Assembly: GCA_036339465.1 (NCBI GenBank)
Contig: JAYZAY010000075.1
Coordinates: 1 to 31,159 of the forward strand
Origin: Myxococcota bacterium
GTDB taxonomy: Bacteria > Myxococcota > XYA12-FULL-58-9 > JABJBS01
DNA length: 31,159 bases
Reading direction: 5' to 3'
Below, piece by piece: positions 4,408 to 31,155 of this stretch (position 1 is its first letter; each line of letters opens with the position of its first letter). Under the pieces are notes generated by a model, which did not search any database, had not been told where the DNA came from, and saw only the letters and a program-made list of their open reading frames with translations. The position numbers were made by a program, and so were the translations under genes.

Positions 4408-5214
4408 TCAGTTGATGGGGGCGCACGCCATATTTGTTAAGAAGTCGATGAGGGTTTTGTTGACCTCCTCTGGGACTTCGACGCAACTCAAGTGGCCAGC
4501 TTGTTTCAGAACGCGAAAGATTGCATGTGGTATGGCTTTTTTTAGTTTTAGGGCTCTATCCAGTGGCAATGCCCTATCCTCCTGTCCGTGGACAATCAAG
4601 GTTGGTACTGTGATCTTCCCAAGCTCTTGCAAGATGTTGTTTCGGTTGCAGAGGGCATCGAGGGTTTTGAGCATGGAGGGTACATGGACTCCGTGTAGCT
4701 GCTCTGTCCATTCCGCGATCAGTTGCGGGCAATGCCGCAGACTTGTTTGACCAAAAAATTTTCGCTGCATGGGGGTGGTCATGGCGGCAATCCCTATTTT
4801 ATCCACCAAAATTGCCAAGAGCCGATGTTCTGTTTTTGTGATAAAGGTTTCTGCACCTCCATCTGTGTTGAAGAGAGCGAGCGCCCTAACGCGCTTTGGG
4901 TGTGTGAGGGTGGCTCGTATGGAAATCATACCGCCAATGGAAAGCCCGACCCAAATCGCTTGGTGGATCTTTGCATGGTCGAGGACGGCTAGGGCATCGT
5001 CGACGAGGTCGTAGAGATCGTGGGGTTGGGAGGGGCTGGATTGACCATGGCCTCTGGGATCCATGGCAATCACGCGATAAGAGGTTGAAAATCGGACGAT
5101 TTGTGCGCGCCACAACTGGGTGGAAGTGCAGAAAGACGGTAAAAAGAAGATAGGCTCACCTCTTCCATGGTCTTCATAAAAGAGTTGGTGGTCTTGTCTT
5201 TGGGCGTAGGGCAT
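4408..5214 (-). CDS. Alpha/beta hydrolase (3-oxoadipate enol-lactonase-like)
   Basis: DPRGHGQS, nucleophile elbow GLSIGG, GQED acid, AGH catalytic His. Confidence 0.88.
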   Translation of the reverse strand: MPYAQRQDHQLFYEDHGRGEPIFFLPSFCTSTQLWRAQIVRFSTSYRVIAMDPRGHGQSSPSQPHDLYDLVDDALAVLDHAKIHQAIWVGLSIGGMISIRATLTHPKRVRALALFNTDGGAETFITKTEHRLLAILVDKIGIAAMTTPMQRKFFGQTSLRHCPQLIAEWTEQLHGVHVPSMLKTLDALCNRNNILQELGKITVPTLIVHGQEDRALPLDRALKLKKAIPHAIFRVLKQAGHLSCVEVPEEVNKTLIDFLTNMACAPIN

Positions 5215-7509: not shown

Positions 7510-8304
7510 ATGGGGTTGGCAGTGAAGTTACATTTTGAAAAATTTGGTTCTGGCTATCCATTGGTTATTTTACACGGTCTTTTTGGCTCCGGGCAGAACT
7601 GGCGACGGGTGGCTAAGAGTGAGCCCCTGAAAGATTTCACCGTCTATACATTGGATTTAAGAAACCACGGTTCGTCTCCCCATGCTGCTGTTGGTTCACT
7701 AAGCGAAATGGCCACCGATGTACTGGACACCCTCGAAGAACTGGAAGACAAGCAATTCTTACTCCTGGGGCATTCTCTTGGGGGCAAGGTAGCGATGCAG
7801 ATTGCCTTTCAATCACCCCAAAGCTTAGGTGGATTGGTCGTGGTAGATATTGCTCCTCGCAGTTACCCACCTGGTCATCTTGGGATCCTGGATGCATTGC
7901 AAGGGCTGAATTTGGTGGGTGCCACAAGTCGAGGAGATTTGGATTCTCAGCTTGCACATGCGATCAAGGAACCGAGCCTTCGCCAATTTCTACTAAAGAA
8001 TATTACTCGGGCCGATGATGGAACTTTTCAATGGAAACTCGGCTTAGCGCACATTGCTGATGCTTATCCTGAAATGATTGATTTTCATGCGCCAAAAACA
8101 ACTTCTGATGTCCCTGCTCTCTTTGTTCGAGGTGGGAATTCTAATTATGTGTTAGATGCGGATTTTGGTTTAATTCGAAGTGTTTTCGGACAAGCGGAAT
8201 TTGCAGATATTGCCGATGCGGGTCATTGGGTTCATTACGAACAGCCCCAAGCTTTTCTCGATAAAATTGGAGAATTTGCTCAGACCACTTGCTTACCGCG
8301 ATAA
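7510..8304 (+). CDS. Alpha/beta hydrolase, YbfF/ABHD11-like esterase
   Basis: LHGLFGS..NW, DLRNHGSSPH, GHSLGGKVAM, VVDIAP, RQFLLKN, AGHWVH. Confidence 0.9.
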   Translation: MGLAVKLHFEKFGSGYPLVILHGLFGSGQNWRRVAKSEPLKDFTVYTLDLRNHGSSPHAAVGSLSEMATDVLDTLEELEDKQFLLLGHSLGGKVAMQIAFQSPQSLGGLVVVDIAPRSYPPGHLGILDALQGLNLVGATSRGDLDSQLAHAIKEPSLRQFLLKNITRADDGTFQWKLGLAHIADAYPEMIDFHAPKTTSDVPALFVRGGNSNYVLDADFGLIRSVFGQAEFADIADAGHWVHYEQPQAFLDKIGEFAQTTCLPR

Positions 8305-9098
8305 CCGCGCATCCATTCTATTAAAGCCTCCCCTATCTCCACCGACATATGCTTTTGGATATGATGACCGCCATGATGGAAGCATAAACGGGGTCCAGCG
8401 GGGCATGTGCGGGCCAACTCACGACTGATTTCTCCCTCCACAAAAGCATCGTCCTCAGCCCAAGCCACAAAGGTGGGCTGGCGTAACATTGGAATGCATT
8501 GTCTTATTTCGCGAAATGATATTTCCTGAACAATCTGCATGGCCTGGTGGAGGCTCTCTACGGATAGGTCTTCAGGGAAACCCGCCTTAATAAATCCTTT
8601 TTTGAGCCATGGCCCCAAGGCGTAGCGGAATGGTTTAACGTTGAGAAGTGTGGGGATAAAATGTCGTGAAATGGGATGTCGCCGAATGGATGCGTGGGGC
8701 CTCAGACCCGGCGATGCGATCAGTCCAAGATGGCTAAACCTCCCAGGGAAACGGGCTGCGACCTCCATGGCCAACACTCCACCTGCAGAATGTCCTATAA
8801 TACCAGCGTTTTTGAGCCCGAATTGCTCGGCTATCGACGCCACAAAGAGCGCCCTTTTACTGAGCTTCGCACTCGGATCTACTCTGAGCGGGGTTTGACC
8901 AAAACCAGGCAAGTCGAGTCGCATGACGGTGAATGCCTTGCTTAGCACTGGAGCAAGCCACCGAAAGTCACGCATGGAGCCGGGACAACCGTGTAAGGCC
9001 AAGACGAACGGTCCCCTACCCTCGACGGAAAAAGCAACGGGGCCTCGAGTGGTTTCGAGATACTCGATGCTGGGATCGCTTGGGGTATCGGATCGCAT
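8280..9098 (-). CDS. Alpha/beta hydrolase
   Basis: LHGCPGS, DLPGFGQT, GHSAGG, WAEDD, GGHHIQ; its 3' end overlaps the convergent esterase by 25 bp. Confidence 0.87.
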   Translation of the reverse strand: MRSDTPSDPSIEYLETTRGPVAFSVEGRGPFVLALHGCPGSMRDFRWLAPVLSKAFTVMRLDLPGFGQTPLRVDPSAKLSKRALFVASIAEQFGLKNAGIIGHSAGGVLAMEVAARFPGRFSHLGLIASPGLRPHASIRRHPISRHFIPTLLNVKPFRYALGPWLKKGFIKAGFPEDLSVESLHQAMQIVQEISFREIRQCIPMLRQPTFVAWAEDDAFVEGEISRELARTCPAGPRLCFHHGGHHIQKHMSVEIGEALIEWMRGYRGKQVV

Positions 9099-11145: not shown

Positions 11146-12165
11146 GTGGCTGGGTCAGAAGTGCGTATGCAAGAAAGACTCGTCTTCGTTATCTGCCCGC
11201 CCCGTTCGGGTTCCACTATGATTCAACAAATGTTGGCCTCCCATTCTAAGGTTTGTACCCATCCCGAGCCCCATCTCATTACCCCTCTCCAATATCTGGG
11301 ATATTTCAAAGGGGTTGAACGTGCTCCCTACGATCAGGTGAATTCAGGACAAGCAATTCGCGAATTGGTGGAAGAACTTCCGCGCAAGGAAGCCGACTAT
11401 TTAGAGGCCTTGAGGGCCTATACGAATCATCTTTATGGTTGCCTGCTCGCCAAGGGTGGCGCGACTTATTTTGTCGACAAGACGCCCGCATATGCTTTGG
11501 TGTTACCCTTCCTTAAAAAGCTTTATCCCGATGCACACTATCTCGTACTTACACGGCATCCCTTGGCTATTTTTCACTCGGTTGCCCGCTCCTTTTTTGG
11601 GGGTGATTACGAGGCCGCTCTGGTAAAAAACCCCATTCAGCAAGGCTATATTGGCGCTATTGCAACGTTTTTGAGGGAGCCCCCCAAGAATTGTCGTCAC
11701 ATCACCTACGAGCGGCTTGTTCAGCGCCCGGAGGAAACCATGCGGGCCATCGCATCGTTCATCGGACTCGACTTTGAACCGGATATGGTAACTTACGGAA
11801 ATCAAAAGCACCTTAAAAAGAGCTTTGGTGATCCCATGACGGTCCACAAACATCGGGAACCCAAAACGGATTCAGTCGTGCGCTTTGCCCCCGCCCTCAA
11901 GGGCGATACGAAACTATTAGACGACCTCAGAGCACTCCTAGCAGCAGTTGCGCCTGAGGATTTGGCTGAGTGGGGTTATACGCACGATAGTCTGTTTGGT
12001 GAAATCAGTTCTTCCCAAGCCAAACCCGCCCGGGCTCCCCTAGTAAATAGTTATGTCTTGCGAAAAACTGTATTGTCGCAGCTGCGAAAATCCACCAAGC
12101 ACCCTAGGGTGGCCAGACTTTTTGAGAAAGTTAAGTACGCCTGCGAATTGGCATTAAATCACTAG
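11146..12165 (+). CDS. PAPS-dependent sulfotransferase (start may be the downstream ATG of MQERLVFV)
   Basis: 5'-PSB loop CPPRSGST, FVDKTP, 3'-PB motif LTRHPLAIFHS, YERLVQRPE. Confidence 0.88.
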   Translation: MAGSEVRMQERLVFVICPPRSGSTMIQQMLASHSKVCTHPEPHLITPLQYLGYFKGVERAPYDQVNSGQAIRELVEELPRKEADYLEALRAYTNHLYGCLLAKGGATYFVDKTPAYALVLPFLKKLYPDAHYLVLTRHPLAIFHSVARSFFGGDYEAALVKNPIQQGYIGAIATFLREPPKNCRHITYERLVQRPEETMRAIASFIGLDFEPDMVTYGNQKHLKKSFGDPMTVHKHREPKTDSVVRFAPALKGDTKLLDDLRALLAAVAPEDLAEWGYTHDSLFGEISSSQAKPARAPLVNSYVLRKTVLSQLRKSTKHPRVARLFEKVKYACELALNH

Positions 12166-12170
12166 AATGT

Positions 12171-12650
12171 TCAGGGGCAATCGAGATTGCCAGTGATGCT
12201 AATGGAATCACTGGGGAGGTCCAAGTTGCTGATAGCGTCTTGGGCAGAGGCGCACGCCAGCCGGTCGTTGTAGGATATACCCACGGTTGTTCCCACCGTG
12301 TCGAGGCTATTTAAATTCAGTTCCGTCAGATTGTCGTTGTTCTTTATTTGTAACGACATGCCCACTTCTTCTAGGTTGGGCAGGTCAAGGCTTGTGAGCA
12401 TCCGGTTATTTTCCACAAAAAGAAGTCCCGTCACTTTGGTGAGATTGGGCCAAGAAGCCTGGTGGATGCCGGTATTGGCAATGGTTAGATTACCGTCGAC
12501 CTGGTTATAGCGGCCATAAAACGCGACGTCGCGGTCGCTTTTTATATTAATTGGGCCGCTGTAGATATTTCCATCACCACAGCCCACAGCTGTGCCCATC
12601 ACCAATAAAAAAAGCCCAGCGCCTTGCCGATAAAACTTAGGCAATATCAT
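12171..12650 (-). CDS. Lipoprotein with receptor-L-domain-like leucine-rich repeats
   Basis: Lipobox AVG-C; repeats of the type LPNLEEVGMSLQIKNNDNLTEL and LNSLDTVGTTVGISYND. Confidence 0.7.
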   Translation of the reverse strand: MILPKFYRQGAGLFLLVMGTAVGCGDGNIYSGPINIKSDRDVAFYGRYNQVDGNLTIANTGIHQASWPNLTKVTGLLFVENNRMLTSLDLPNLEEVGMSLQIKNNDNLTELNLNSLDTVGTTVGISYNDRLACASAQDAISNLDLPSDSISITGNLDCP

Positions 12651-12725: not shown

Positions 12726-13571
12726 CTAGGAAGCCGAGACCAGAACTTCACCGATAGGCCCACGTCGGTCTGCGCGGCTGTTAATGGCCCGTCGCGCGTA
12801 TATTTTATCGATCTTAAAATCCTTATAAAGTTCCCGAATGAGTGGTGTGTCGGAATTTGAGAGCACGACATGAACTCCCCTATTGGCCAACCGACCAAAT
12901 AGTTTCGCTAGGCGTGCTTGATGCTCTTCTCCAAATCCGAACTGGGTATAATTCGTAAAGGATGCGGTCTTACTTACCGGTTGATATGGAGGGTCAAAAT
13001 AGACAAGGTCACCCTGTTTTACACGTTTTCCAATCTCAAAAACGGACTCGTTTTTAAGTTGAACTTTTTGCAAGGCACTGGAAACAGCCCGAAGATTCGC
13101 TTCATTACAAATAGTAGGATTGGCGTATTTCCCAAATGGGACATTGAACCTACCGCTTCGGTTGACACGATAGAGGCCATTAAAGCATGTCCTATTGAGA
13201 AAAATAATCCGAGCAGCTGCTTCAACCGAAGATAAATTTGCGACATTAAGCTGTCTTACTTGGTAATAGTATTCCTCTTCGGATCTGTGTGCTTTGAGCG
13301 CCTGAATCACAGCATCAACATTGTCGCGAATTGAGGTATAGGTCCCAATTAAATCGCTGTTAACATCAGAGATTGTTGCACGCTTTGGAGCAAGGCGAAA
13401 GAACGCCGCACCACCACCGACAAATGGCTCATGGTAGCGATTAAATTGTTCTGGAAAGCGAGCAAAGATTTCATTCAAAATCTGCGTTTTTCCACCAGCC
13501 CATTTTAAGAATGGTTTCGCGCTTTGGAATCTTGTTTCACTTCTGAGAGTTAATTTTCGAGCGGTTTGCAT
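12726..13571 (-). CDS. dam: Dam-family (D12 class) N6-adenine DNA methyltransferase
   Basis: KPFLKWAGGK, EPFVGGGA, LNRTCFNGLYRVN..FNVPFG, catalytic DPPY, VLSNSDT. Confidence 0.93.
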   Translation of the reverse strand: MQTARKLTLRSETRFQSAKPFLKWAGGKTQILNEIFARFPEQFNRYHEPFVGGGAAFFRLAPKRATISDVNSDLIGTYTSIRDNVDAVIQALKAHRSEEEYYYQVRQLNVANLSSVEAAARIIFLNRTCFNGLYRVNRSGRFNVPFGKYANPTICNEANLRAVSSALQKVQLKNESVFEIGKRVKQGDLVYFDPPYQPVSKTASFTNYTQFGFGEEHQARLAKLFGRLANRGVHVVLSNSDTPLIRELYKDFKIDKIYARRAINSRADRRGPIGEVLVSAS

Positions 13572-15823: not shown

Positions 15824-16294
15824 TTAGAGCTTCGAACGATGAAGTCCATGTATTTCGAAATCGCGGCCTTCATCTTGGATTTTAATATAGATCCAGATGG
15901 CTTCATCGGAGATGATTTCCGGTACTCGGTCGGCCCATTCAAAGACGTTTATCGCATGTTCGGCGCTTGGATGGTCGGCCAAACCAAGCCCGTAGGCCGA
16001 CTCTGCGTCCGTGAGGCGGTAAAGGTCGTAATGGAGGAGCAGGTTTTCCTCACAGCGGTATTCATTGACATAAGCATAGGTAGGACTCGTGACCTGTTCG
16101 GTTGGGAGAATTCGGAGCCCAGCCGCAATCCCATGAACCAATTGCGTCTTTCCGGCTCCAAGGTCGCCGACGAGCGCAATGACATCGCCTGGCTTCATTA
16201 TTTGTCCAAGCCTTTTACCAAAGTGGAGTGTGTCTTCAAGGCTCTCCACCCTTTCGACCCATACCTCTGGATTCTCTGTTGTCATCGTTGCCAC
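15824..16294 (-). CDS. tsaE: tRNA threonylcarbamoyladenosine biosynthesis ATPase
   Basis: GDLGAGKT, VTSPTY, HYDLYRL, EWAD. Confidence 0.95.
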   Translation of the reverse strand: MATMTTENPEVWVERVESLEDTLHFGKRLGQIMKPGDVIALVGDLGAGKTQLVHGIAAGLRILPTEQVTSPTYAYVNEYRCEENLLLHYDLYRLTDAESAYGLGLADHPSAEHAINVFEWADRVPEIISDEAIWIYIKIQDEGRDFEIHGLHRSKL

Positions 16295-17811
16295 TCCAAG
16301 AAAACGTCACCGGCAGCTTCAAGCACATCGCGGGCCCGCATGCCAGCAAATCCATGGGTCTGGCTAGCTCTTTGAGCAGCTTCACCATGTAAAAGAATGC
16401 CGGATAGGATCCCATCCATGGTTTGCGGGCATTGGCCAATCAGGGCGGCAATCATCCCCGTCAACACGTCGCCACTTCCCGCTTTGGCAAGGCCCGGATT
16501 TCCAACCGTGGCGATGAAGGTATCTCCCTGGGGCTGGGCCACAATGGTGTGGGCCCCTTTAAGCACGACGTAGATTTTGTGGTCTCGCGCGATTTTTTCA
16601 GCTGCTTCTACCGGTGCGCCAAGGACCTCAGAGGTGGTTGCGCCGAGCAAACGGCTCATCTCCTTGGGGTGAGGCGTGATGATGCGGTGCCCCCGTGCGC
16701 TGCCCATTTCTAAATTGTCGGAAGCAATGATATTGAGTGCTTCGGCGTCTAGCACCATGGTTCCATCATATTCGGTTAAGAGCGTTTTGAACCGCCGTCT
16801 TGACCGATCCGAAAATTGAAGCCCCGGGCCCACCACCAAAGTCGTGGTGTCTCGAACCAAAATATCCTGCCATTCTTCATCATTTTTGGACTTATCTAGC
16901 CAACGAAGCATGGCTTCTTTTGGCCATGAGGGGCCACTGGCAAAAAGCGCCTCAGTGGCGGCCCAACTGACCAAACCAGCACCGGCACGTAGAGCCCCTT
17001 CCACAGCCAAGATAGCAGCGCCTGGGCTCGATTGGGAACCGGCCCACACACCCACATGCCCGAAATGTCCCTTATGACAGTTCCGTGGCCTGGCGGGTAG
17101 TCCGATCGGTCCTTCAGGGGCGCCTATCTGACGCAACTGAACCTTGTGTTTCTGGGGCAATTCGTCAGGGATCCCTATGTCGATGACATCGATCTCGCCG
17201 GATAGCTCAGCTCCAGGAAAAAGGAGATTTCCTCTTTTGGGATAGGCGAATGTAATGGTTCCATTGGCCCGAATCGCAATATTGTCAAATACATTGCCCG
17301 AAGTGCCACAAACCCCCGAAGGGATGTCGAGTGCGATGGTTTGGCAAGGGGATGCATTGGTGGCCAAAATCACTTCTTTATAGGGAGACCGGGGGCTTGC
17401 TTGAAGGCCTGTACCGAGCATGGCATCGATGATGATGGTATTGGCAGGTAAGCGTTGAATCAGGTCTGCGACATCCTGGGCGCCGAGCACGTTGGTTTGC
17501 AGGCCGAGGCTGCGCCATTGTTCGTAAGCCCGCTTTACATCACCGGTCAGGGCTTCAAGAGGACAAAGGCTCACCAACGTGAGGTTGCGCCCTCCGAGGT
17601 GAAGGTCGTGGCCTACAACATATCCGTCTCCACCATTGTTGCCTTTTCCGCACAGGATTAAGATGTGTTTATGGGCAGGATAACGGTTTTGAATGATTTG
17701 AGCAGCACCTTTACCTGCTCGCCGCATCAAGGAGAAACCCGTGATACCATAATCGACAATGGTGGTGCGGTCCAGTTCCCTCATTTGCTCGGAAGTTAAA
17801 ACGTAGGTCAT
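16282..17811 (-). CDS. nnr: Bifunctional NAD(P)H-hydrate epimerase/dehydratase (YjeF)
   Basis: GKGNNGGDG, DAMLGTG, DIPSG, HKGHFG, GAGLV, GPGL, TPHPKE, GSGDVLTG. Confidence 0.95.
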   Translation of the reverse strand: MTYVLTSEQMRELDRTTIVDYGITGFSLMRRAGKGAAQIIQNRYPAHKHILILCGKGNNGGDGYVVGHDLHLGGRNLTLVSLCPLEALTGDVKRAYEQWRSLGLQTNVLGAQDVADLIQRLPANTIIIDAMLGTGLQASPRSPYKEVILATNASPCQTIALDIPSGVCGTSGNVFDNIAIRANGTITFAYPKRGNLLFPGAELSGEIDVIDIGIPDELPQKHKVQLRQIGAPEGPIGLPARPRNCHKGHFGHVGVWAGSQSSPGAAILAVEGALRAGAGLVSWAATEALFASGPSWPKEAMLRWLDKSKNDEEWQDILVRDTTTLVVGPGLQFSDRSRRRFKTLLTEYDGTMVLDAEALNIIASDNLEMGSARGHRIITPHPKEMSRLLGATTSEVLGAPVEAAEKIARDHKIYVVLKGAHTIVAQPQGDTFIATVGNPGLAKAGSGDVLTGMIAALIGQCPQTMDGILSGILLHGEAAQRASQTHGFAGMRARDVLEAAGDVFLEWQR

Positions 17812-17834: not shown

Positions 17835-18551
17835 TTAGATACTGAGAGCGGCGAACTCATCCACTGCGCTCTCTAAACCAGTAAAGAGCGCCCTTGCAAA
17901 GAGCGCCTCGCCTGCAACAATATCGAGCACGTCTTCGATGGCGCTTAGGTCGGCCGCATTGGCATAGGTGAGCCCTTTTGCGCAGCCGACGTTTAAACCA
18001 AACTTCCGGGCCAGTCTGGCGGCGTCCATGATGCGCTGGAGTTCCTCATGTCGTGTGCCTCGACTGGGGGCTTGAATAAGACCGAGAGCAGAGAATAGGA
18101 CATTTTGAAATTCTAGCCGGTGTATCTGACGAATGACATCGATATCTGGAGATGTAAATGCGCCCACCCCGATACCATTTTCCCGTAGGGGTGCAGAAAG
18201 CGTCTTCAGGTGTTCGATATTGGAAAAAACATCGAGGGTGGCATGTTTCTGACCCTCTGGGCGACGTTTCCCGAAATAGACCATTTCTGGTTTCATATTC
18301 ATGGCGAATTTTATGAGTTCGGGTTCCGGAGCGATGATAAGCTGCAGTTTGGCATCGGTTATTTCTTGGGTGATGCCCACGTCTCGTTCATGGTCCAGTA
18401 GTGTTTCCTGGAAGATTTCGAATTGAATCCCCTTGATATGACGCAACGTTGCTAAGCCAGCAATCAGTGCGGGATCGGGTCTTTTGATTTCACTGGTTGC
18501 GCGAAATCGCACAATAGGACTTAAGTCGATCACAAGACGTCGTTTTTGCAT
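17835..18551 (-). CDS. pdxJ: Divergent PdxJ-family TIM-barrel protein, probably catalytically degenerate
   Basis: PdxJ-like length, position after glmM and scaffold (PDPAL.A, ERDV, KPEMVYF, AARLARKFGL, GLTY.N, ARALFTGLESAV); catalytic motifs substituted. Confidence 0.7.
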   Translation of the reverse strand: MQKRRLVIDLSPIVRFRATSEIKRPDPALIAGLATLRHIKGIQFEIFQETLLDHERDVGITQEITDAKLQLIIAPEPELIKFAMNMKPEMVYFGKRRPEGQKHATLDVFSNIEHLKTLSAPLRENGIGVGAFTSPDIDVIRQIHRLEFQNVLFSALGLIQAPSRGTRHEELQRIMDAARLARKFGLNVGCAKGLTYANAADLSAIEDVLDIVAGEALFARALFTGLESAVDEFAALSI

Positions 18552-18563
18552 GGCATCATCTCT

Positions 18564-19925
18564 CTATCCAATGGCTGAAGTAAGGGCTCGGCTCACTTTG
18601 TGCGCGAGGTCGTCCACCACTTCTTTTTCGGGTCCTTCTACCAATACCCTAGCTTTTGACTCTGTGCCAGAATACCGCACCATGACCCTCCCGTCGGTAC
18701 CCAGGGTGGTTTCTGCCTGCTGAATCGCTGCCTGAACCTGTGAGAGTTCTTCGAGGGGTGGTTTGGTTTTCACCGGTAAGTTGACCAATGCTTGCGGATA
18801 AGGGACAAAAACGCCTTTGATTTCGCTGAGGGGTTGACCGCAACGTCGTAGAATTGAAAGTACCCGGAGGGCGCCAACCATGCCGTCGCCTGTGGTGGCC
18901 CAATCTAAAAAGACCAAATGCCCAGACTGCTCGCCCCCAAAGGAGTGTCCCGATTGACGCATTTTTTCCACCACGTAGCGGTCCCCCACCTGGGTTCGTA
19001 TAACCTTGCCTCCAAAGTTTGCCACGGCGCGTTCGAGTCCAAGATTGGACATGACTGTGGTTACCACCGTCTTGTTTGCCAGTAGGTTTGCTTCATTGAG
19101 GTCTTGAGCTGCCAAAGCAAGAAGGCAATCGCCATCCACGTCTTCCCCTTTTTCGTCGACCACGACCAAACGGTCGGCATCACCATCGAGGGCGATCCCC
19201 ACGTCGGCACTATGTTCCTTAACAGCGGCGCGAAGATTCTCAGTGTGGAGCGCGCCGCAATTGGCGTTGATATTTCGGCCATTGGGGGTGGTTCCAATGG
19301 CGATAACTTCTGCGCCCAATTCTTGTAAAACGATGGGTGCTACTTTGTAGGCGGCCCCGTTGGCGCAATCGACTACCACCTTAATGCCTTCAAAATCCAT
19401 CTCGGTTGAGATAGAACTTTTGAGTTTGACCACGTAGCGTCCGAGGGCGTCGTCGATTCGATAGGCTTTTCCGACGAGTTCTTGGGTAGGGCGTATCTGG
19501 TGGACGGATTCGTCTTCCATTAAGTGTTCCAATTCCAATTCGATACTGTCTGGTAGTTTAAAGCCGTCACGGGCAAAAATCTTGATGCCATTGTCGGCAT
19601 ACTGATTATGGCTGGCGCTGATCATGACCCCCGCATCGGCACGCATATTTTGGGTGAGGAACGCCACGGCCGGCGTTGGGAGAGGGCCTACAAAGAGGAT
19701 ATCGACGCCCATGGAGCATGCGCCACTGGCGAAGGCCATTTCCAGCATATAGCCCGAGAGTCGGGTATCCTTGCCCACCACAATTCGGTGCCGATGGTCG
19801 CCATCTCGGCAGTGGTGTCCTAGGGCCCTTCCTAGTTTAAGGGCCACTTCACTGGTCATTGGAAACTGATTGGCTACGCCGCGAATGCCATCGGTGCCGA
19901 ATAGCTGTCTGGTCATTAGATTCAT
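18564..19925 (-). CDS. glmM: Phosphoglucosamine mutase
   Basis: LFGTDGIRG, GKDTRLSGYMLE, MISASHN, DGDADR, VGDRYV, GGEQSGH, RYSGTE. Confidence 0.97.
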   Translation of the reverse strand: MNLMTRQLFGTDGIRGVANQFPMTSEVALKLGRALGHHCRDGDHRHRIVVGKDTRLSGYMLEMAFASGACSMGVDILFVGPLPTPAVAFLTQNMRADAGVMISASHNQYADNGIKIFARDGFKLPDSIELELEHLMEDESVHQIRPTQELVGKAYRIDDALGRYVVKLKSSISTEMDFEGIKVVVDCANGAAYKVAPIVLQELGAEVIAIGTTPNGRNINANCGALHTENLRAAVKEHSADVGIALDGDADRLVVVDEKGEDVDGDCLLALAAQDLNEANLLANKTVVTTVMSNLGLERAVANFGGKVIRTQVGDRYVVEKMRQSGHSFGGEQSGHLVFLDWATTGDGMVGALRVLSILRRCGQPLSEIKGVFVPYPQALVNLPVKTKPPLEELSQVQAAIQQAETTLGTDGRVMVRYSGTESKARVLVEGPEKEVVDDLAHKVSRALTSAIG

Positions 19926-19958
19926 CCTAACTTAGCGGCCGCCAAGCTAGATTGAAGC

Positions 19959-20882
19959 TTAATCGACCTTTTTCGATATCATTACCGTGGGGATGGGGCC
20001 AACCATGGTGGTACCAGGAGGCAGTCCTTCCTTGAGCTCTATTGACTTCTCATAACCCAGGCTCTCTTTCAAGAGTTCTGGTTCCACTGACACCCACGCA
20101 TTCAGCTTTTCAGCGGTGAGTTTGTCTAGGCTCAACCGGGGGCCGCGAATGACCACGGCAACAGCAGGCGGGTCCAAGCGCACCGGCATTTCATGGTCGA
20201 TTTTGTGATTAATTTCGACCGATGCGAAAACCCGTTGAATCACCTCTTCTTCCACCTTCACCACCACACGAACGCGTTTTTGGGTTAATCGCAGTGGAAA
20301 GGCTGGGGCGCGAAGATCAATTTCGGTGTCGAGATTGTCTGTGCGACCGGCGAGATCTAGGGCCGTGGTTTGTAGGTAGTCGAGATCTGAAACTGATCCC
20401 AATGGACCTGATACCCGAATATCGGGGGGTTCGATGATGACATCCGCGATGGCGTAGCCATAGGCGGGGCGATTGGGAAGTAATGCCTCGACCCTTACGA
20501 GGCGTTCGACTTTCTGGTCCACGGTGATATCCCAGGTGGATGGCCGAAAGCGCATGGCCTTCATGCCAAAGGGGGCCCCGATGTCTGAGGTTTTCAAGGC
20601 GTACTGTATGGTGGAGGGCTCCTTATAATCTTTGAGGTCCACCACGATTGGGTCGATCTTACTGAAATCACGGAATTTTACCCAGGGCCCCCGAAGCGTC
20701 ACTTCCAGTTGAGTCGGGAAATCACCGGTGAGCATGAGGCCGTTTGCGGTGCGATACTCAATGGGAAAACTGATTTCGATGGGTGTGGCACTCTCTACAT
20801 TGAGCACGATAAAGAGGGACACGGCGATACCAAAAGACAGAAGTTTTAGGAACCAATTATGTGTGATTTCGCCCAAGGCCAT
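19959..20882 (-). CDS. cdaR: YbbR-domain diadenylate cyclase regulator
   Basis: N-terminal TM NWFLKLLSFGIAVSLF; repeated YbbR motifs (VTLRGP, P..IRVSGP, PPAVAVVIRGP); lies between cdaA and glmM. Confidence 0.88.
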   Translation of the reverse strand: MALGEITHNWFLKLLSFGIAVSLFIVLNVESATPIEISFPIEYRTANGLMLTGDFPTQLEVTLRGPWVKFRDFSKIDPIVVDLKDYKEPSTIQYALKTSDIGAPFGMKAMRFRPSTWDITVDQKVERLVRVEALLPNRPAYGYAIADVIIEPPDIRVSGPLGSVSDLDYLQTTALDLAGRTDNLDTEIDLRAPAFPLRLTQKRVRVVVKVEEEVIQRVFASVEINHKIDHEMPVRLDPPAVAVVIRGPRLSLDKLTAEKLNAWVSVEPELLKESLGYEKSIELKEGLPPGTTMVGPIPTVMISKKVD

Positions 20883-20889
20883 CCCTTCC

Positions 20890-21750
20890 CTATCCCTTCC
20901 TGTTCATGAAGGCTGCGGTTGGATTTTTTGATGTTTGACAGGCATCGCTTCGGCCAGTCGTCTCATTTAGCTTGGGTTTTTCGATGAGGTCCAGATGTTT
21001 TCGCAGTACTTTCTTTAACATGGCCCCATCGAGATTGCGGGTGAGACTGCCACTTTCCACAAAGCTAATTTGCCCACGTTCCTCAGAAACGACGATTCCC
21101 ACCGCGTCGTATTCTTCGGTGGCCCCCATGGCCGCACGGTGTCGGGTGCCGATGGTGTTATCGATTCTGGGGTTGTGGGTGAGTTGGAGAAAGACAGCGG
21201 CGGCGCTCAGACGCCCATGTTGAATGATGGCCGCGCCGTCATGGGTCGGGCCCGGGGGTGTAAAGAGCTGAATCAGCAGCGGAGCCGAGAGATTGGCGTC
21301 GATGGCAAACCCTTTTTCTGCCAGGGCGGTGAGGTCTGCGCCTCGCTCGATAAGAATGAGGGCGCCGATTCGGTCTTTGGCCATGGCATCGGCGGCGCGA
21401 ACGATTTGGTCGACCCAATCCTCTTCGGTACGGTCTCGGTTGAATTCAAAGATGGACCGTTGGCCCACGCGGGAAAGTCCTCGTCGGATGTCGTTTTGAA
21501 AAAGTATAATGAGAATCAGCAGAAAGGAGCCCAGGAAGTTTTCTAAGAGCCAAGACACTGTCCGGAGGTTGATGAGTCTGGCGGCGATAAAAAGGGCGAC
21601 GATAAGGCCCAAACCCACCAAAACCTGTTGGGCGCGGGTTCCGCGGATGAGGAGAAGGACGCGATAGAGCAGCCAAGCCACCACCATGACGTCCACCAGC
21701 GACACGCCAATCGCTGCAAGTAAATGTGGCTCAAAATCAAAAATCATCAC
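20890..21750 (-). CDS. cdaA: Membrane diadenylate cyclase (c-di-AMP synthase)
   Basis: Three N-terminal TM segments, FQNDIRRGL, GALI.IER, HDGA, GTRHRAA, IVVSEERG. Confidence 0.95.
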   Translation of the reverse strand: MMIFDFEPHLLAAIGVSLVDVMVVAWLLYRVLLLIRGTRAQQVLVGLGLIVALFIAARLINLRTVSWLLENFLGSFLLILIILFQNDIRRGLSRVGQRSIFEFNRDRTEEDWVDQIVRAADAMAKDRIGALILIERGADLTALAEKGFAIDANLSAPLLIQLFTPPGPTHDGAAIIQHGRLSAAAVFLQLTHNPRIDNTIGTRHRAAMGATEEYDAVGIVVSEERGQISFVESGSLTRNLDGAMLKKVLRKHLDLIEKPKLNETTGRSDACQTSKNPTAAFMNRKG

Positions 21751-27262: not shown

Positions 27263-27913
27263 ATGAAAGAATTTTGGTTTGTGGGCATGTTGGCTTTAGC
27301 CATGTGTGCTGCCTGTGGTGGGAATGAGTCGACGAGTGAAGGCCCAAATACCGATACCAGCGTGAGTGCCGCTGAAGATAATGATGCGGTCACCTCTGGC
27401 GGTAGTTCGGAAACCTTAGTCTGTGGGGCTTCGGCCTGCGGAGGTGATCCGGCGGGAACATGGAATCTCGAAAGTTTGTGTAGTGTTTACTCTGATGTGT
27501 ACCCAGATCCTTCCTGCTCCGGTTCTCAATTTGAGGAGAAGGGGGTCGCCTCGGGGACTTTGGTTTTGAAGAAAGACAAAACCTATACGCGAAATCTAAC
27601 CTTCGGAACGACTCTAAAAATCAATTTCCCTCTCTCGTGTGGAAAAAGTTGTCAATCCTTGGCGGATGGCTACGATAAAAATTGGCCGGAAATTCAGTGT
27701 ACCCAGACAGCCACGGAATGTGTTTGTGAAGGTGCTGTGATGGACTCTGTAGATACTGCGGGTAGCTACAGCGTCACAGGAACCAGTCTCGCATTGCAAG
27801 ACACTGGCTCTACGGAGGGCGCGACCTTCGAGATTTGTGTGGGTAGCCAAACCATGGTTTTTAATACCCCGGGAAATCCGGCCTTCGGGGGCATGTTGTT
27901 TGTGCCTCAATGA
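27263..27913 (+). CDS. Cys-rich lipoprotein of myxobacterial type
   Basis: RBS AGGAG; lipobox CAA-CGG; acidic Ser/Thr linker; ACGGDPAGTW motif; many Cys. Confidence 0.8.
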   Translation: MKEFWFVGMLALAMCAACGGNESTSEGPNTDTSVSAAEDNDAVTSGGSSETLVCGASACGGDPAGTWNLESLCSVYSDVYPDPSCSGSQFEEKGVASGTLVLKKDKTYTRNLTFGTTLKINFPLSCGKSCQSLADGYDKNWPEIQCTQTATECVCEGAVMDSVDTAGSYSVTGTSLALQDTGSTEGATFEICVGSQTMVFNTPGNPAFGGMLFVPQ

Positions 27914-28187: not shown

Positions 28188-30230
28188 CTATCTCATCTCG
28201 GTTGTGGAGCAGTGGATGTTTCCACCGTTGACGTGATTGGTTTGATAGTCATTGATGAAATGTAGGGTGTTTCCTGAAGCGGCGAGAGTATGCCGAATAT
28301 GTTTCTCAAAAACACACGAGCCTCCGCCTTCACTGGGACCGAAGGGTTTTGGAATCACCAAGGTTGCATGGTCTGGGCTATCACTCGCCACCAGCATATT
28401 CACACTATTCGGAGTAAAGGGTTCATAGGCCATTCGCTCTTTTTGCCCCCCAAACAAGCCTCCTATGGAGACGCTATCTTTGGCAGTACGACGGCGGTAG
28501 AGCACCGGAATATCAATGATATCCTCGGCCCTTAGTCCCAATTGGTCCCGCAACATGGTTTTGACAGAATCAAGCTTGGAACGAACCTCGTCAGCTGCTT
28601 GGCTGATACCGCCCATCTCGGTGTCTAAGATGGGTCCACTTGGAACGCCCGAAGCACTCGCCCGTGTTAAGGAATCGCCCATTCGCTGATATTTTTCCCT
28701 AAAGCCGTCTTCGACTCCGACGCACATGGGCTTGTCTCTATGGGCATGCATGAGCTTCATCGCCAGATCGTGATTGGCCACTAGGGCCTTAAAACCGTGC
28801 TTTGAGCCTGGCCAAGGCACAAAGGTGAGCACTTCGTCGGTGTGCCCGGTTTGGAGCCATGAAGTATCGATTCGGACAATGGGTTGCTTCTCTTGGGCGA
28901 TTAAGAAGTCTAGGGTGGCATCTCCGATTTTTCGTGCTGGATCGTGGCCAACAATGATTGCTCCAAATGGAAAACCATCGCCCATAGGTGGCGTGCATAA
29001 AAAATTGCCACCAGACTCTAGGTCTGACTTCATGGGTGCGTGCCCAATGGATGTTAAGCGCTGTCCGCGTTTTGCACAGTGAGAATCCATAAATGCAAGC
29101 ACTTGGTCGATGCCTTGGGTCTCTCGTTCAACCGGATTTCGCAGCAGCTCCGATGGCTCAAGAACGTCGCCCCGAGTGGCTAGGGAACGACCCGAAAACG
29201 CCATGTCTCTCACCCAGGAATCTTTGACATCTCCCTCTGCTCGAATGACTCGCAGCTTACCCGGAATCGCCGCACTGAGGTCTTGCAAATACTGCTCACA
29301 GCGGCGGTCATTCACGACGCGAGGTGGATCCGGTCGTCGACCCCGAATGGGGGGAGCGCTCATGAGACTGGTTTTCTGGATGGCGAAGGCCTCACGCATG
29401 GGCATGAGGTGATGCGACATCACCCAAGATGGTGCTCGAATAAATCGCGCTTCTTCACTCACTACATTTCCGATGGAGTCCAAAATGCGCATTCTTACCG
29501 TGACCCCAGAAAAATCTTTGGTGGGATGGGGAATCCCTTCAAGTTCATGGGACCAGGTTTCAGGTCGCCGCTCGGGGGCTCCAAACATTCGAACCCTTGC
29601 TTCGCTGGTGACAAGCTTCTGCTGTCCAATATCGAGAATATTGGTTCCATGTTCGTCCCGGTGATTGGGAATCGAAAAAAACGCATCGTCCCGAATTGAC
29701 AATTGTCCCGCATCTGGGGGGTCGAGAGTGAGTTCGCACTTGTAGCCTTCTGGGAAATCGGCCTCTGGCGGGTTTCTAGATAATTTAAGCTCGATAACCT
29801 CTCTTCCGTCTTTGATATGTGATTCCAGTTCCATAGATAAGACAGGAAGGGGGCTGGTCGTAGAAAGGGACGGGGCGTACACTAGGAATTCTGAAGTGTC
29901 GCCAAGATCGGCCGGTGATGGTTTAGGCGGGTGGTATGGTTGGGATACCTCTCGCGAATCGGTGGCTGACCTCGAGCTTTGTGGGGCAATGCCTTGCGCC
30001 GCACTGGTGGCTGAAACATTCACCACCAGCGCGTGGGTATCTGGAGGGAGGCCTTGAAGGCCATCGTGCAGGTGTTTTGAAAACTGATCGAGGGCTGCAG
30101 ATGGGAGGCTTGGGTTTTGTTTGGCTAAGGTGGCGCGAACCTCGGATTTACTGGCATTGTGTTCAACTTTGCCGCGAATCTCTAAAGCATCTGAAGCCGT
30201 TTTGGCGCTGAGAAAAAATTGGACCTTCAT
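28188..30230 (-). CDS. Protein-arginine deiminase, PADI (animal/cyanobacterial)-type
   Basis: RAPSWVM, WVRD, LESGGNFLCTPP, DTSWLQTGHTDEVLTFVP, IIDIPVLY, PNSVNMLV, IPKPFGP and GNIHCSTT match PADI catalytic-domain motifs in order. Confidence 0.88.
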   Translation of the reverse strand: MKVQFFLSAKTASDALEIRGKVEHNASKSEVRATLAKQNPSLPSAALDQFSKHLHDGLQGLPPDTHALVVNVSATSAAQGIAPQSSRSATDSREVSQPYHPPKPSPADLGDTSEFLVYAPSLSTTSPLPVLSMELESHIKDGREVIELKLSRNPPEADFPEGYKCELTLDPPDAGQLSIRDDAFFSIPNHRDEHGTNILDIGQQKLVTSEARVRMFGAPERRPETWSHELEGIPHPTKDFSGVTVRMRILDSIGNVVSEEARFIRAPSWVMSHHLMPMREAFAIQKTSLMSAPPIRGRRPDPPRVVNDRRCEQYLQDLSAAIPGKLRVIRAEGDVKDSWVRDMAFSGRSLATRGDVLEPSELLRNPVERETQGIDQVLAFMDSHCAKRGQRLTSIGHAPMKSDLESGGNFLCTPPMGDGFPFGAIIVGHDPARKIGDATLDFLIAQEKQPIVRIDTSWLQTGHTDEVLTFVPWPGSKHGFKALVANHDLAMKLMHAHRDKPMCVGVEDGFREKYQRMGDSLTRASASGVPSGPILDTEMGGISQAADEVRSKLDSVKTMLRDQLGLRAEDIIDIPVLYRRRTAKDSVSIGGLFGGQKERMAYEPFTPNSVNMLVASDSPDHATLVIPKPFGPSEGGGSCVFEKHIRHTLAASGNTLHFINDYQTNHVNGGNIHCSTTEMR

Positions 30231-30630: not shown

Positions 30631-31155
30631 CTACCGTAGAGCTTTGGCGAAAAGCGCCCGAGCTTCATCAACGGCTCCTAAAGCCCTCCGATTAAACCGG
30701 CCTGCACCTATAGAACCGGTGCCTCGTTCATTCAACGATTTTTCTGAAACCCTTAGCCGCCCGTAAACTTGCTCAAGCACCTCGCGCTCTTCCACGGCAA
30801 GTAATTTACGGACATAGGCACTGCGGGTCTTAGAAGATTGATTCAAAATCTGTTTGAAAAGTACCTCCCACCGGGCCGGACCATCGAAATCCTTGGTTTT
30901 TTGTGGTTTAGGAGACCTTAAACAATGCTCGGTAAACTCAACAACTTCGGACTGGCTGCCAAAGCGGACCCCTTTTGAGCGCACTGGCGCTGGTTCAAAA
31001 CTATCTCGACTCAACGTGTCTTTGTCATCCCCACTCGAAGAAGAGGCATCGTCTAAATCTGACTCGCTTGAACCTAAACTTGTATAAACATAAGCCCCAA
31101 CTGTAGCTGCAGCTATTACTGTCATTTCAACCCAACTTTCTAATTTTAAAGTCAC
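30631..31155 (-). CDS. Hypothetical protein with N-terminal hydrophobic segment; frame is open at the window edge
   Basis: 174-aa ORF with VIAAATVGAYVY, an acidic Ser-rich linker and a helical basic C-terminus. Confidence 0.55.
   Translation of the reverse strand: MTLKLESWVEMTVIAAATVGAYVYTSLGSSESDLDDASSSSGDDKDTLSRDSFEPAPVRSKGVRFGSQSEVVEFTEHCLRSPKPQKTKDFDGPARWEVLFKQILNQSSKTRSAYVRKLLAVEEREVLEQVYGRLRVSEKSLNERGTGSIGAGRFNRRALGAVDEARALFAKALR

Follow-up and report, generated by a model that had tools for sequence, protein, structure and literature searches.

Can a peptidylarginine deiminase (PAD) lose the calcium sites that order its active site and still be an enzyme? Calcium dependence is regarded as a defining property of the PAD family, and it is a standing puzzle that human PADs in vitro need far more calcium than cells normally contain. 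The question is raised by a gene on the reverse strand of contig JAYZAY010000075.1 (positions 28188 to 30230), from the Myxococcota assembly GCA_036339465.1, in a window of 31,159 nucleotides, by which we mean the whole stretch of DNA that was analyzed. The gene encodes 680 amino acids (aa) plus a stop codon, without a signal peptide, and its product appears to be a variant of the known PAD enzyme kind, new in having lost the calcium sites while the catalytic residues were kept. The reading that we prefer, with a probability of about one half, is that of an active PAD whose active site forms without any need for calcium and which would probably act in a cytosol; its activity, calcium independence, substrate and place of action are what we infer from the sequence.

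Identity and fold of the PAD protein

Membership of the PAD family is directly evident. PF03068 (PAD) was the sole Pfam family in the 680-aa open reading frame (ORF) in a scan to an expectation value (E) of 1, matching aa 263 to 680 with E 1.1e-48 and a score of 166.6 bits, where the cut-off is 25; in the same scan, PF08527 (PAD_M) and PF04371 gave no match, and scans of the protein against NCBIfam and PADLOC returned no family. The catalytic PAD_C domain (aa 275 to 680; 28191 to 29408, reverse strand) was modeled by AlphaFold2 with a predicted local distance difference test score (pLDDT) mostly above 90, within a whole-protein model of mean pLDDT 84.3 and predicted TM score 0.75. The best structural matches of this model were ligand- or calcium-bound PAD4 (Z 42 to 43, top 43.2, root mean square deviation 3.1 Å over 451 residues), with PADI6 at Z 37.6 and calcium-free PAD2 at Z 36.6. 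Foldseek aligned the model to PAD4 with E 3.6e-32, and all its fold neighbors were PF03068 PADs. A sequence search of the PDB matched PAD4, PAD3, PAD2, PAD1 and PADI6 only over aa 402 to 677, and therefore the calcium-ligand region needed a better alignment.

Replacement of the calcium ligands

That alignment, A1, contained 34 sequences, and its profile matched solved PAD2 with E 4e-188 and PAD4 with E 4e-186. Labels beginning with P, L and G denote library proteins, loci and genomes, respectively; P0062, a library protein of the vertebrate PAD type in which the classical motifs are present, served as the animal reference. The profile set the motif columns onto 'DRWIQDEIEFGY', 'VVLDSPRDGN' and 'SFGNLEVSPP' of solved PAD2, and P0062 gave the same register for the calcium-motif columns. 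Invariant columns in A1 were W339, D342, G347, G408, N409, P414, H673 and C674, with R369, H463 and D465 nearly invariant.

In PAD4, Ca1 is bound by Q349, E353 and E411 and Ca2 by E351, D369 and N373 (PMC11402830), while the catalytic tetrad of PADs is formed by Asp350, His471, Asp473 and Cys645 (bioRxiv 10.1101/2020.07.16.207027). The residues equivalent to these PAD4 positions are R341 (Q349), D342 (D350), M343 (E351), F345 (E353), R364 (D369), N365 (S370), E368 (N373), R369 (R374) and L411 (E411), and, in the catalytic set, H463 (H471), D465 (D473) and C674 (C645). We further take S370 to be a Ca2 ligand and R374 (which presumably binds the substrate backbone) and W347 to be substrate contacts, and the middle domain of calcium-dependent PADIs to carry the Asp-rich Ca3 to Ca5 switch and Asp388.

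All the motifs in question lie on the reverse strand. The first, WVRDMAF (aa 339 to 345; 29196 to 29216), brings together the substrate-wall Trp (W339), an Arg in place of the Ca1 Gln (R341), the first catalytic Asp (D342), a Met in place of the Ca2 Glu (M343) and a Phe in place of a Ca1 Glu (F345). The former Ca2 loop reads L-R364-N365-P-V-E368-R369 (29124 to 29144), in which LRNPVE covers aa 363 to 368 (nucleotides 29144 to 29127) and R369 corresponds to PAD4 R374. In GNFLCTPP (aa 408 to 415; 28986 to 29009), a Leu stands at the Ca1 Glu411 position. The catalytic His and the second Asp lie in GHTDE (from aa 462; 28833 to 28847), and the catalytic Cys in IHCST (from aa 672; 28203 to 28217).

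The Ca1 ligands are thus absent, with R341, F345 and L411 in place of Gln349, Glu353 and Glu411, and those of Ca2 are not kept as a set, with M343, R364, N365 and E368 in place of Glu351, Asp369, the presumed Ser370 and Asn373. In the same 680-aa protein, the catalytic D342, H463, D465 and C674 are retained, together with W339 and R369. The original prediction, that WVRDMAF, LRNPVE and GNFLCTPP replace the calcium-ligand segments of PADs while the catalytic Asp stays, is borne out, as the three strings lie where it had located them and the profile alignment to PAD2 and PAD4, in the register also given by P0062, found the ligands not conserved.

The losses extend beyond Ca1 and Ca2. In alignment A1, the Asp-rich Ca3 to Ca5 stretch ('GAILLVNNDxD...D..D') has no counterpart in this protein or in P0002, P0003, P0008 and P0011, and the same five proteins lack the 'GPDFGY' segment (the D388 region) and the R-x-P-x-x-x-W-W tail of canonical PADs, the present protein ending six residues past C674. 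An N-N-D-G-D stretch is kept by five sister proteins with a long C-terminal extension (P0004 to P0006, P0009 and P0010). With the Ca1 and Ca2 ligands replaced and a middle domain without the Ca3 to Ca5 stretch, no PAD4 calcium site is left in the protein.

A clade with a fixed Ca1 replacement

Relatives were sought in several ways. A word-indexed search found 5 relatives among 7999 candidates scored: P0002 and P0003 (48% and 46% identical, both 675 aa) and three proteins of about 900 aa at 32 to 33% identity, for which precomputed Pfam records give PF08527 (PAD_M) in two and PF02902 (Ulp1 protease) in P0004. An exhaustive search returned 1241 proteins at E <= 0.001, 17 of them at E <= 1e-30. 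A metagenome scan with the clade alignment found 6 loci, among them the 22-kb contig L130, and a search of species genomes for close relatives gave 30 pattern matches, none of which was confirmed as a relative.

Across the resulting 10-member clade, whose mutual identity is 27 to 50%, the triplet formed by R, F or Y, and L or M at the three Ca1 positions is fixed in every member and therefore does not reflect chance decay. D342, H463, D465, C674, W339 and R369 are likewise invariant across these ten proteins, as are R341 and P366. Position 364 reads R, L, Q, E, E, R, E, R, R and V through the clade, and position 368 is similarly variable.

Recurrent replacement of Gln349 by arginine

We asked how often the Gln349 position carries Arg in the wider family. 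The sample rests on the best 150 of the 1241 homologues, ranked against a query that is itself of the Arg type, so that the share of Arg-type proteins is inflated and not representative. In all, 170 hits (153 library proteins plus ORFs of 17 loci) were aligned to the A1 profile, and with the duplicate row of the window and 19 incomplete rows set apart, 150 rows remained. Among these, 104 combined Q349 with an E, Q or D at position 353 and an E or D at position 411. R349 was found in 37, counting the present protein and L014 (identical with P0002), and 9 had other combinations. The catalytic D, H, D and C were present in all 37 R349 rows. In contrast, E353 was kept in none of the 37, being replaced by F, Y, K, R, S, A, V, I or Q, and E or D stood at 411 in only 4. 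The Arg equivalent to R374, found in 10/10 clade members, was present in only 23/37 R349 rows, and the Trp was retained in the clade and in the lineages labeled B, C and E, with F or Y instead in most of lineage D and in P0032.

A maximum likelihood tree of 153 catalytic domains (FastTree, 395 columns, midpoint root, Shimodaira-Hasegawa-like supports) required five changes from Q349 to R, with supports of 0.82 to 1.0 for the Arg clades. The lineages concerned were the present clade plus P0032 (0.82 to 0.985), P0043, a group of five proteins (1.0), a group of 18 long proteins (0.957) and P0126, the last nested within the cyanobacterial/animal-type clade. E353 was lost in 5/5 of them and was the only column to leave the Q-type consensus in all five; the loss of E411 was complete in three lineages and partial in one.

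The recurrence of this change, together with the loss of E353 in five lineages, fits a guanidinium group taking over the Ca1 position. The proposal that Arg side chains may replace calcium is supported for one residue and not for the other: R341 is invariant in the clade, and its counterparts arose in five lineages, always with E353 loss, whereas R364 varies within the clade and is therefore not a conserved Ca2 substitute.

Retention of the catalytic set

The loss of the calcium sites could also reflect a loss of catalysis, leaving a pseudoenzyme or scaffold like mammalian PADI6. That protein is without the Ca1 glutamates, binds no calcium and is inactive (PMC11402830), and the modest score of the present protein against PF03068 (166 bits, against 200 to 320 for most PF03068 copies of related genomes, canonical PADs among them) points the same way. 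However, PADI6 has lost its catalytic Cys, while D, H, D and C are complete in every Arg-type row, and in the ten members of the clade the Arg and Trp that bind the substrate are kept as well. A case of true decay in the PAD family is L015 (G051:C8:313055-314200 region), a 691-aa homolog with a lipoprotein-like N-terminus that has lost all four catalytic residues, with N, G, G and D at the positions of D350, H471, D473 and C645, and that is likely, from these residues, a pseudoenzyme.

Natural populations provide a further comparison. The stretch is contained in 20 DNA runs (marine or seawater metagenomes from 10 studies), with no RNA run among those listed. In contigs from 4 marine runs the PAD gene was intact and free of indels, with parts of it uncovered in runs X3, X4 and X5. 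The contigs differed at 87 positions in all; among the 40 differences listed, 23 were synonymous and 17 nonsynonymous, and none hit catalytic or Ca1-equivalent codons. The predominance of synonymous differences and the absence of indels argue against a decaying gene, and on this evidence we consider a catalytically dead protein very doubtful.

Counting G000, 23/101 genomes of this phylum carry PF03068 genes, as do 4/5 other genomes of the same family. One of these related genomes, G005, carries a canonical PAD copy in addition to an ortholog of the present gene.

Predicted place of action

Export was scored with a simple hydrophobicity heuristic on proteins starting with M. No export signal was found in the present protein, whose best 10-residue hydrophobic window in the first 40 aa scored 0.83, and exported-looking N-termini were seen in 0/33 Arg-type proteins versus 16/92 Gln-type proteins, about 4 of these 16 being doubtful. 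Fisher's test gave p 0.006 with 16/92 and 0.035 with 12/92, values that overstate the significance since the sequences are related. Among the copies of related genomes with a visible start, the canonical PADs L002, L004, L006, L009 and L017 begin with lipoprotein-type signals; the remaining loci were truncated or had no ATG start. The suggestion that the protein suits a low-calcium cytosol agrees with this contrast, as far as the heuristic reaches, although nothing in it indicates whose cytosol that would be.

Ten Arg-type PADs (P0016, P0017, P0019, P0030, P0034, P0008, P0011, P0032, P0107 and P0153) have Cys-rich N-termini, which in one lineage read M-x-x-x-G-C-L-x-C or similar and in several others C-x-x-C...C-x-x-C, resembling a zinc ribbon.

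Half of the clade (5/10) carries an Ulp1-like protease domain at the C-terminus. PF02902 is on record for P0004 and was found with E 2.7e-4 in the fusion on L130, and P0004 has a weak similarity to the XopD family (25.8 bits against a cut-off of 700). The L130 fusion (L130:5533-8301) is a 922-aa PAD-Ulp1 (C48) protein of the Ca1-less clade, and its neighbors on the 22-kb metagenome contig are a TraI_2 relaxase, a PAS-MCP gene and the integrase core of an insertion sequence, an arrangement suggestive of a mobile element. These are hints, to be taken as a lead only, that the PAD-Ulp1 fusions may be delivered effectors. A broader proposal, which we put forward tentatively, is that bacterial PADs have repeatedly swapped Ca1 for Arg to give calcium-independent intracellular citrullinating enzymes; the present clade would be the extreme case and the protein studied here a constitutive enzyme, and the fusions with Ulp1/XopD-like proteases near mobile-element genes would be delivered effectors that citrullinate the proteins of another cell.

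A possible calcium-free active site

PAD2 and PAD4 depend on Ca1 and Ca2 to order the loops bearing D350, R374 and C645. In the enzyme proposed here, the guanidinium of the invariant R341 would sit at the Ca1 position and pack against F345, which is aromatic throughout the clade, and L411. The space once taken by Ca2 and Ca4 would be filled by M343 together with a clade-specific helix (aa 374 to 387 of the model), and the calcium-switch stretch of the middle domain (Ca3 to Ca5) would have been deleted. Such an enzyme would have its active site ordered in advance and would function at the sub-micromolar levels of free calcium found in a cytosol, be it that of the bacterium itself or of a target cell. 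PADI6 offers, by analogy, a precedent for an ordered PAD free of calcium (PMC11402830).

It is important to consider the several points that weigh against this proposal. Where the R341 side chain sits with respect to Ca1 was judged geometrically, from side-chain length alone. If Arg stands in place of Ca2+, acidic ligands might be expected to persist as salt-bridge partners; contrary to this expectation, E353 is always lost, several lineages place a second basic residue (K or R) at 353, and no column was found in the Arg lineages that turns acidic whenever position 349 is Arg. The recurrence itself was counted on a FastTree phylogeny with a midpoint root, built from the 150 best hits to an Arg-type query. 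Furthermore, the only studied PAD with a hydrophobic Ca1 site, PADI6, is inactive. AlphaFold predictions tend toward holo-like states, and for this reason it is not counted as evidence that the model matches calcium-bound PAD4 (Z 43) better than PAD2 without calcium (Z 36.6). Finally, when the clade profile was aligned by hhalign to a 15-sequence alignment of the calcium-independent PF04371 family, D-S-W-V-R-D-M fell in register on D-V-W-I-R-D-Y with a probability of only 6%.

The protein may, alternatively, still be regulated, inactive alone and switched on by a protein partner or a modification, by a different metal, or by calcium bound at new sites. Peptides and proteins that bind near the Ca1/Ca2 region can activate PAD4 at low calcium, according to work cited in PMC11402830, and the subclade of the present protein has a private N-terminal domain and a disordered linker; this domain or the clade-specific helix could act as a docking surface, and E368 and N365 remain as possible ligands. 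On the contrary, the variability of positions 364 and 368 leaves no conserved ligand set visible in the clade, and the Arg lineages showed no convergent gain of an Asp/Glu cluster. Nor was a conserved neighboring gene found; the neighbors of the ortholog in G005 differ, save for a weak similarity between small membrane proteins (E 0.007). We therefore regard a regulated enzyme as unlikely.

If the reading of an active, calcium-free PAD is true, a natural PAD with intact catalysis and no calcium sites would reveal an ion-free way of holding the active site, and the fivefold recurrence of the change from Gln to Arg would provide a simple sequence rule separating calcium-free from calcium-dependent PADs. 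It would also offer a possible constitutively active citrullination tool and widen the reach of protein citrullination to include the cytosol of bacteria, or effectors that act in other cells.

Other domains and neighboring genes

Upstream of the catalytic domain, three parts can be distinguished in the model, all on the reverse strand. The N-terminus is a small alpha/beta domain, possibly beta-grasp-like (aa 1 to 78; 29997 to 30230), delimited by the secondary structure of the AlphaFold2 model and common only to P0002 and P0003. It is followed by a predicted disordered linker (aa 87 to 125; 29856 to 29972; pLDDT below 50) and by a shortened beta sandwich like the PAD middle domain (aa 130 to 271; 29418 to 29843), the model aligning to PAD4 from residue ~112 to 118 onward. 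Structure searches with the N-terminal domain were weak. The atlas gave TM scores of 0.52 to 0.58, and the domain folded alone had a best Z of 5.7 and ubiquitin-like folds at Z ~4; Z values of ~4 to 5.7 lie under the level that means more than a common arrangement, and the atlas rows are leads only. These weak matches include many ubiquitin-like, PB1 and UBX folds, which is curious since the sister clade carries the Ulp1 (ubiquitin-like-protease) domain.

A small protein with one predicted membrane helix is encoded upstream of the PAD gene (30631 to 31155, reverse strand). This is the protein with weak similarity (E 0.007 and 0.067, in two collinear pieces) to one encoded near the PAD ortholog of G005 (L014:3432-3677, reverse strand), where the arrangement of the genes differs. 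Convergent with the PAD gene lies the gene for a Cys-rich predicted lipoprotein (27263 to 27913, forward strand), which starts with M-K-E-F-W-F-V-G-M-L-A-L-A-M-C-A-A-C-G-G and has no family match. A promoter and terminator scan found sites no more common than in shuffled sequence, and the transcription unit is thus not defined.

Farther away, a string of cdaA (DAC domain), YbbR-like and glmM genes (18564 to 21750, reverse strand) forms the usual cyclic di-AMP synthase operon and is followed by pdxJ (17835 to 18551) and an NAD(P)HX repair fusion (16282 to 17811). A 159-aa protein (12171 to 12650, reverse strand) matches the Receptor L domain (PF01030, E 6e-9), whose best-known carriers are animal receptor kinases; the gene of the 159-aa protein adjoins those of a D12-class adenine methyltransferase (12726 to 13571) and a sulfotransferase (11146 to 12165). 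Between 4408 and 9098 there are three alpha/beta-hydrolase genes (4408 to 5214, 7510 to 8304 and 8280 to 9098), the first two separated by 2.3 kb without an ORF of at least 150 aa.

Comparison with known systems

Human PAD4 and PAD2 (1WDA, 4N2C) share with the present protein the fold (Z 42 to 43), the catalytic Asp, His, Asp and Cys, the substrate Arg and Trp, and the register of the motifs. The bacterial protein differs from them in keeping no Ca1 or Ca2 ligand as such, apart from a possible N or E, and in lacking the Ca3 to Ca5 stretch. Moreover, the bacterial protein has neither the PAD_N domain nor the R-x-P-x-x-x-W-W tail of the human enzymes, having its private N-terminal domain and linker instead.

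A comparison with agmatine deiminases bears on calcium independence and on the substrate. The PF04371 agmatine deiminases and the Porphyromonas-type PAD (PPAD), calcium-independent members of the same superfamily, share with the present protein W-x-R-D and, at the Cys, H-C-[ST]-T, while their profile-profile similarity to it is marginal (6 to 41% probability over short stretches). All 15 PF04371 ORFs taken from related genomes of this phylum have the W-x-R-D motif, and so do the five chains of solved agmatine deiminases that were listed (1xkn, 2jer, 6nib, 1vkp and 3h7c). The agmatine deiminase of the same genome has V-W-I-R-D-Y-G-P, G-H-V-D-N and I-H-C-S-T-Q-Q, and in its hhalign comparison with the PAD alignment only the C-terminal Cys region aligned (probability 41%). 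The wall of the PPAD substrate cavity includes W127, and D130 of PPAD binds the guanidinium (PMC4893104); the spacing of these residues equals that of W339 and D342. The likeness speaks for the calcium-free reading as a shared motif in register and not as a demonstrated structural equivalence, and the profile-profile alignment is a weak lead only.

The protein might be active on a non-protein substrate, either a small guanidino compound or a natural product made from a ribosomal peptide, and the calcium switch would then have been lost in connection with a metabolic or biosynthetic role. Its I-H-C-S-T is nearer to the H-C-S-T-Q-Q of the agmatine deiminase than to the H-C-G-T-N of canonical PADs, and a PF03068 PAD of Streptomyces citrullinates the lasso peptide citrulassin (bioRxiv 10.1101/2020.07.16.207027). 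Against such a role, the genome already carries the PF04371 enzyme, and no biosynthetic cluster was seen among the neighbors of the PAD gene. The fold and domain layout are also PAD-like, including the middle-domain sandwich, and R369, the counterpart of the presumed substrate-backbone binder R374, is invariant in the clade, so that a metabolic enzyme seems improbable.

Returning to an active PAD without calcium, a further comparison is with the two-domain bacterial and fungal enzymes (PMC8826395), including the Streptomyces citrulassin PAD, which like the present protein are PF03068 proteins that combine a middle with a catalytic domain and are without Ca2 and Ca4. Cummings et al. 2021 (PMC8826395) report that, among their representatives from fungi, actinobacteria, cyanobacteria and animals, Ca1 and Ca3 seem to be conserved in full, that Ca2 and Ca4 are confined to the cyanobacterial/animal clade, and that the cyanobacterial PADI is strictly calcium-dependent. 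The loss of Ca2 is consequently ordinary for two-domain bacterial and fungal PADs. What distinguishes the present protein is that representatives of these enzymes are reported to keep Ca1 and Ca3 (PMC8826395) and 'numerous' calcium residues (bioRxiv 10.1101/2020.07.16.207027), while it has neither Ca1 nor Ca3. A literature search returned no report of a PF03068 PAD without Ca1 or with Arg at the Q349 position; in the literature searched, the loss of Ca1 and Ca3 to Ca5 with an intact catalytic set thus appears undescribed.

The nearest parallel at the Ca1 site itself is human PADI6 (9FMN, 8QL0), which carries an Ala and a Met where the two Ca1 Glu residues would be, binds no calcium and is ordered without it, but lacks the catalytic Cys and is inactive with a blocked active site (PMC11402830). 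Its non-acidic residues at these positions (A362 and M420) resemble F345 and L411 of the present protein. The two part at the remaining Ca1 ligand and at the nucleophile, since PADI6 keeps the Gln and has no catalytic Cys, whereas the myxococcotal protein has an Arg at the Gln position and keeps C674.

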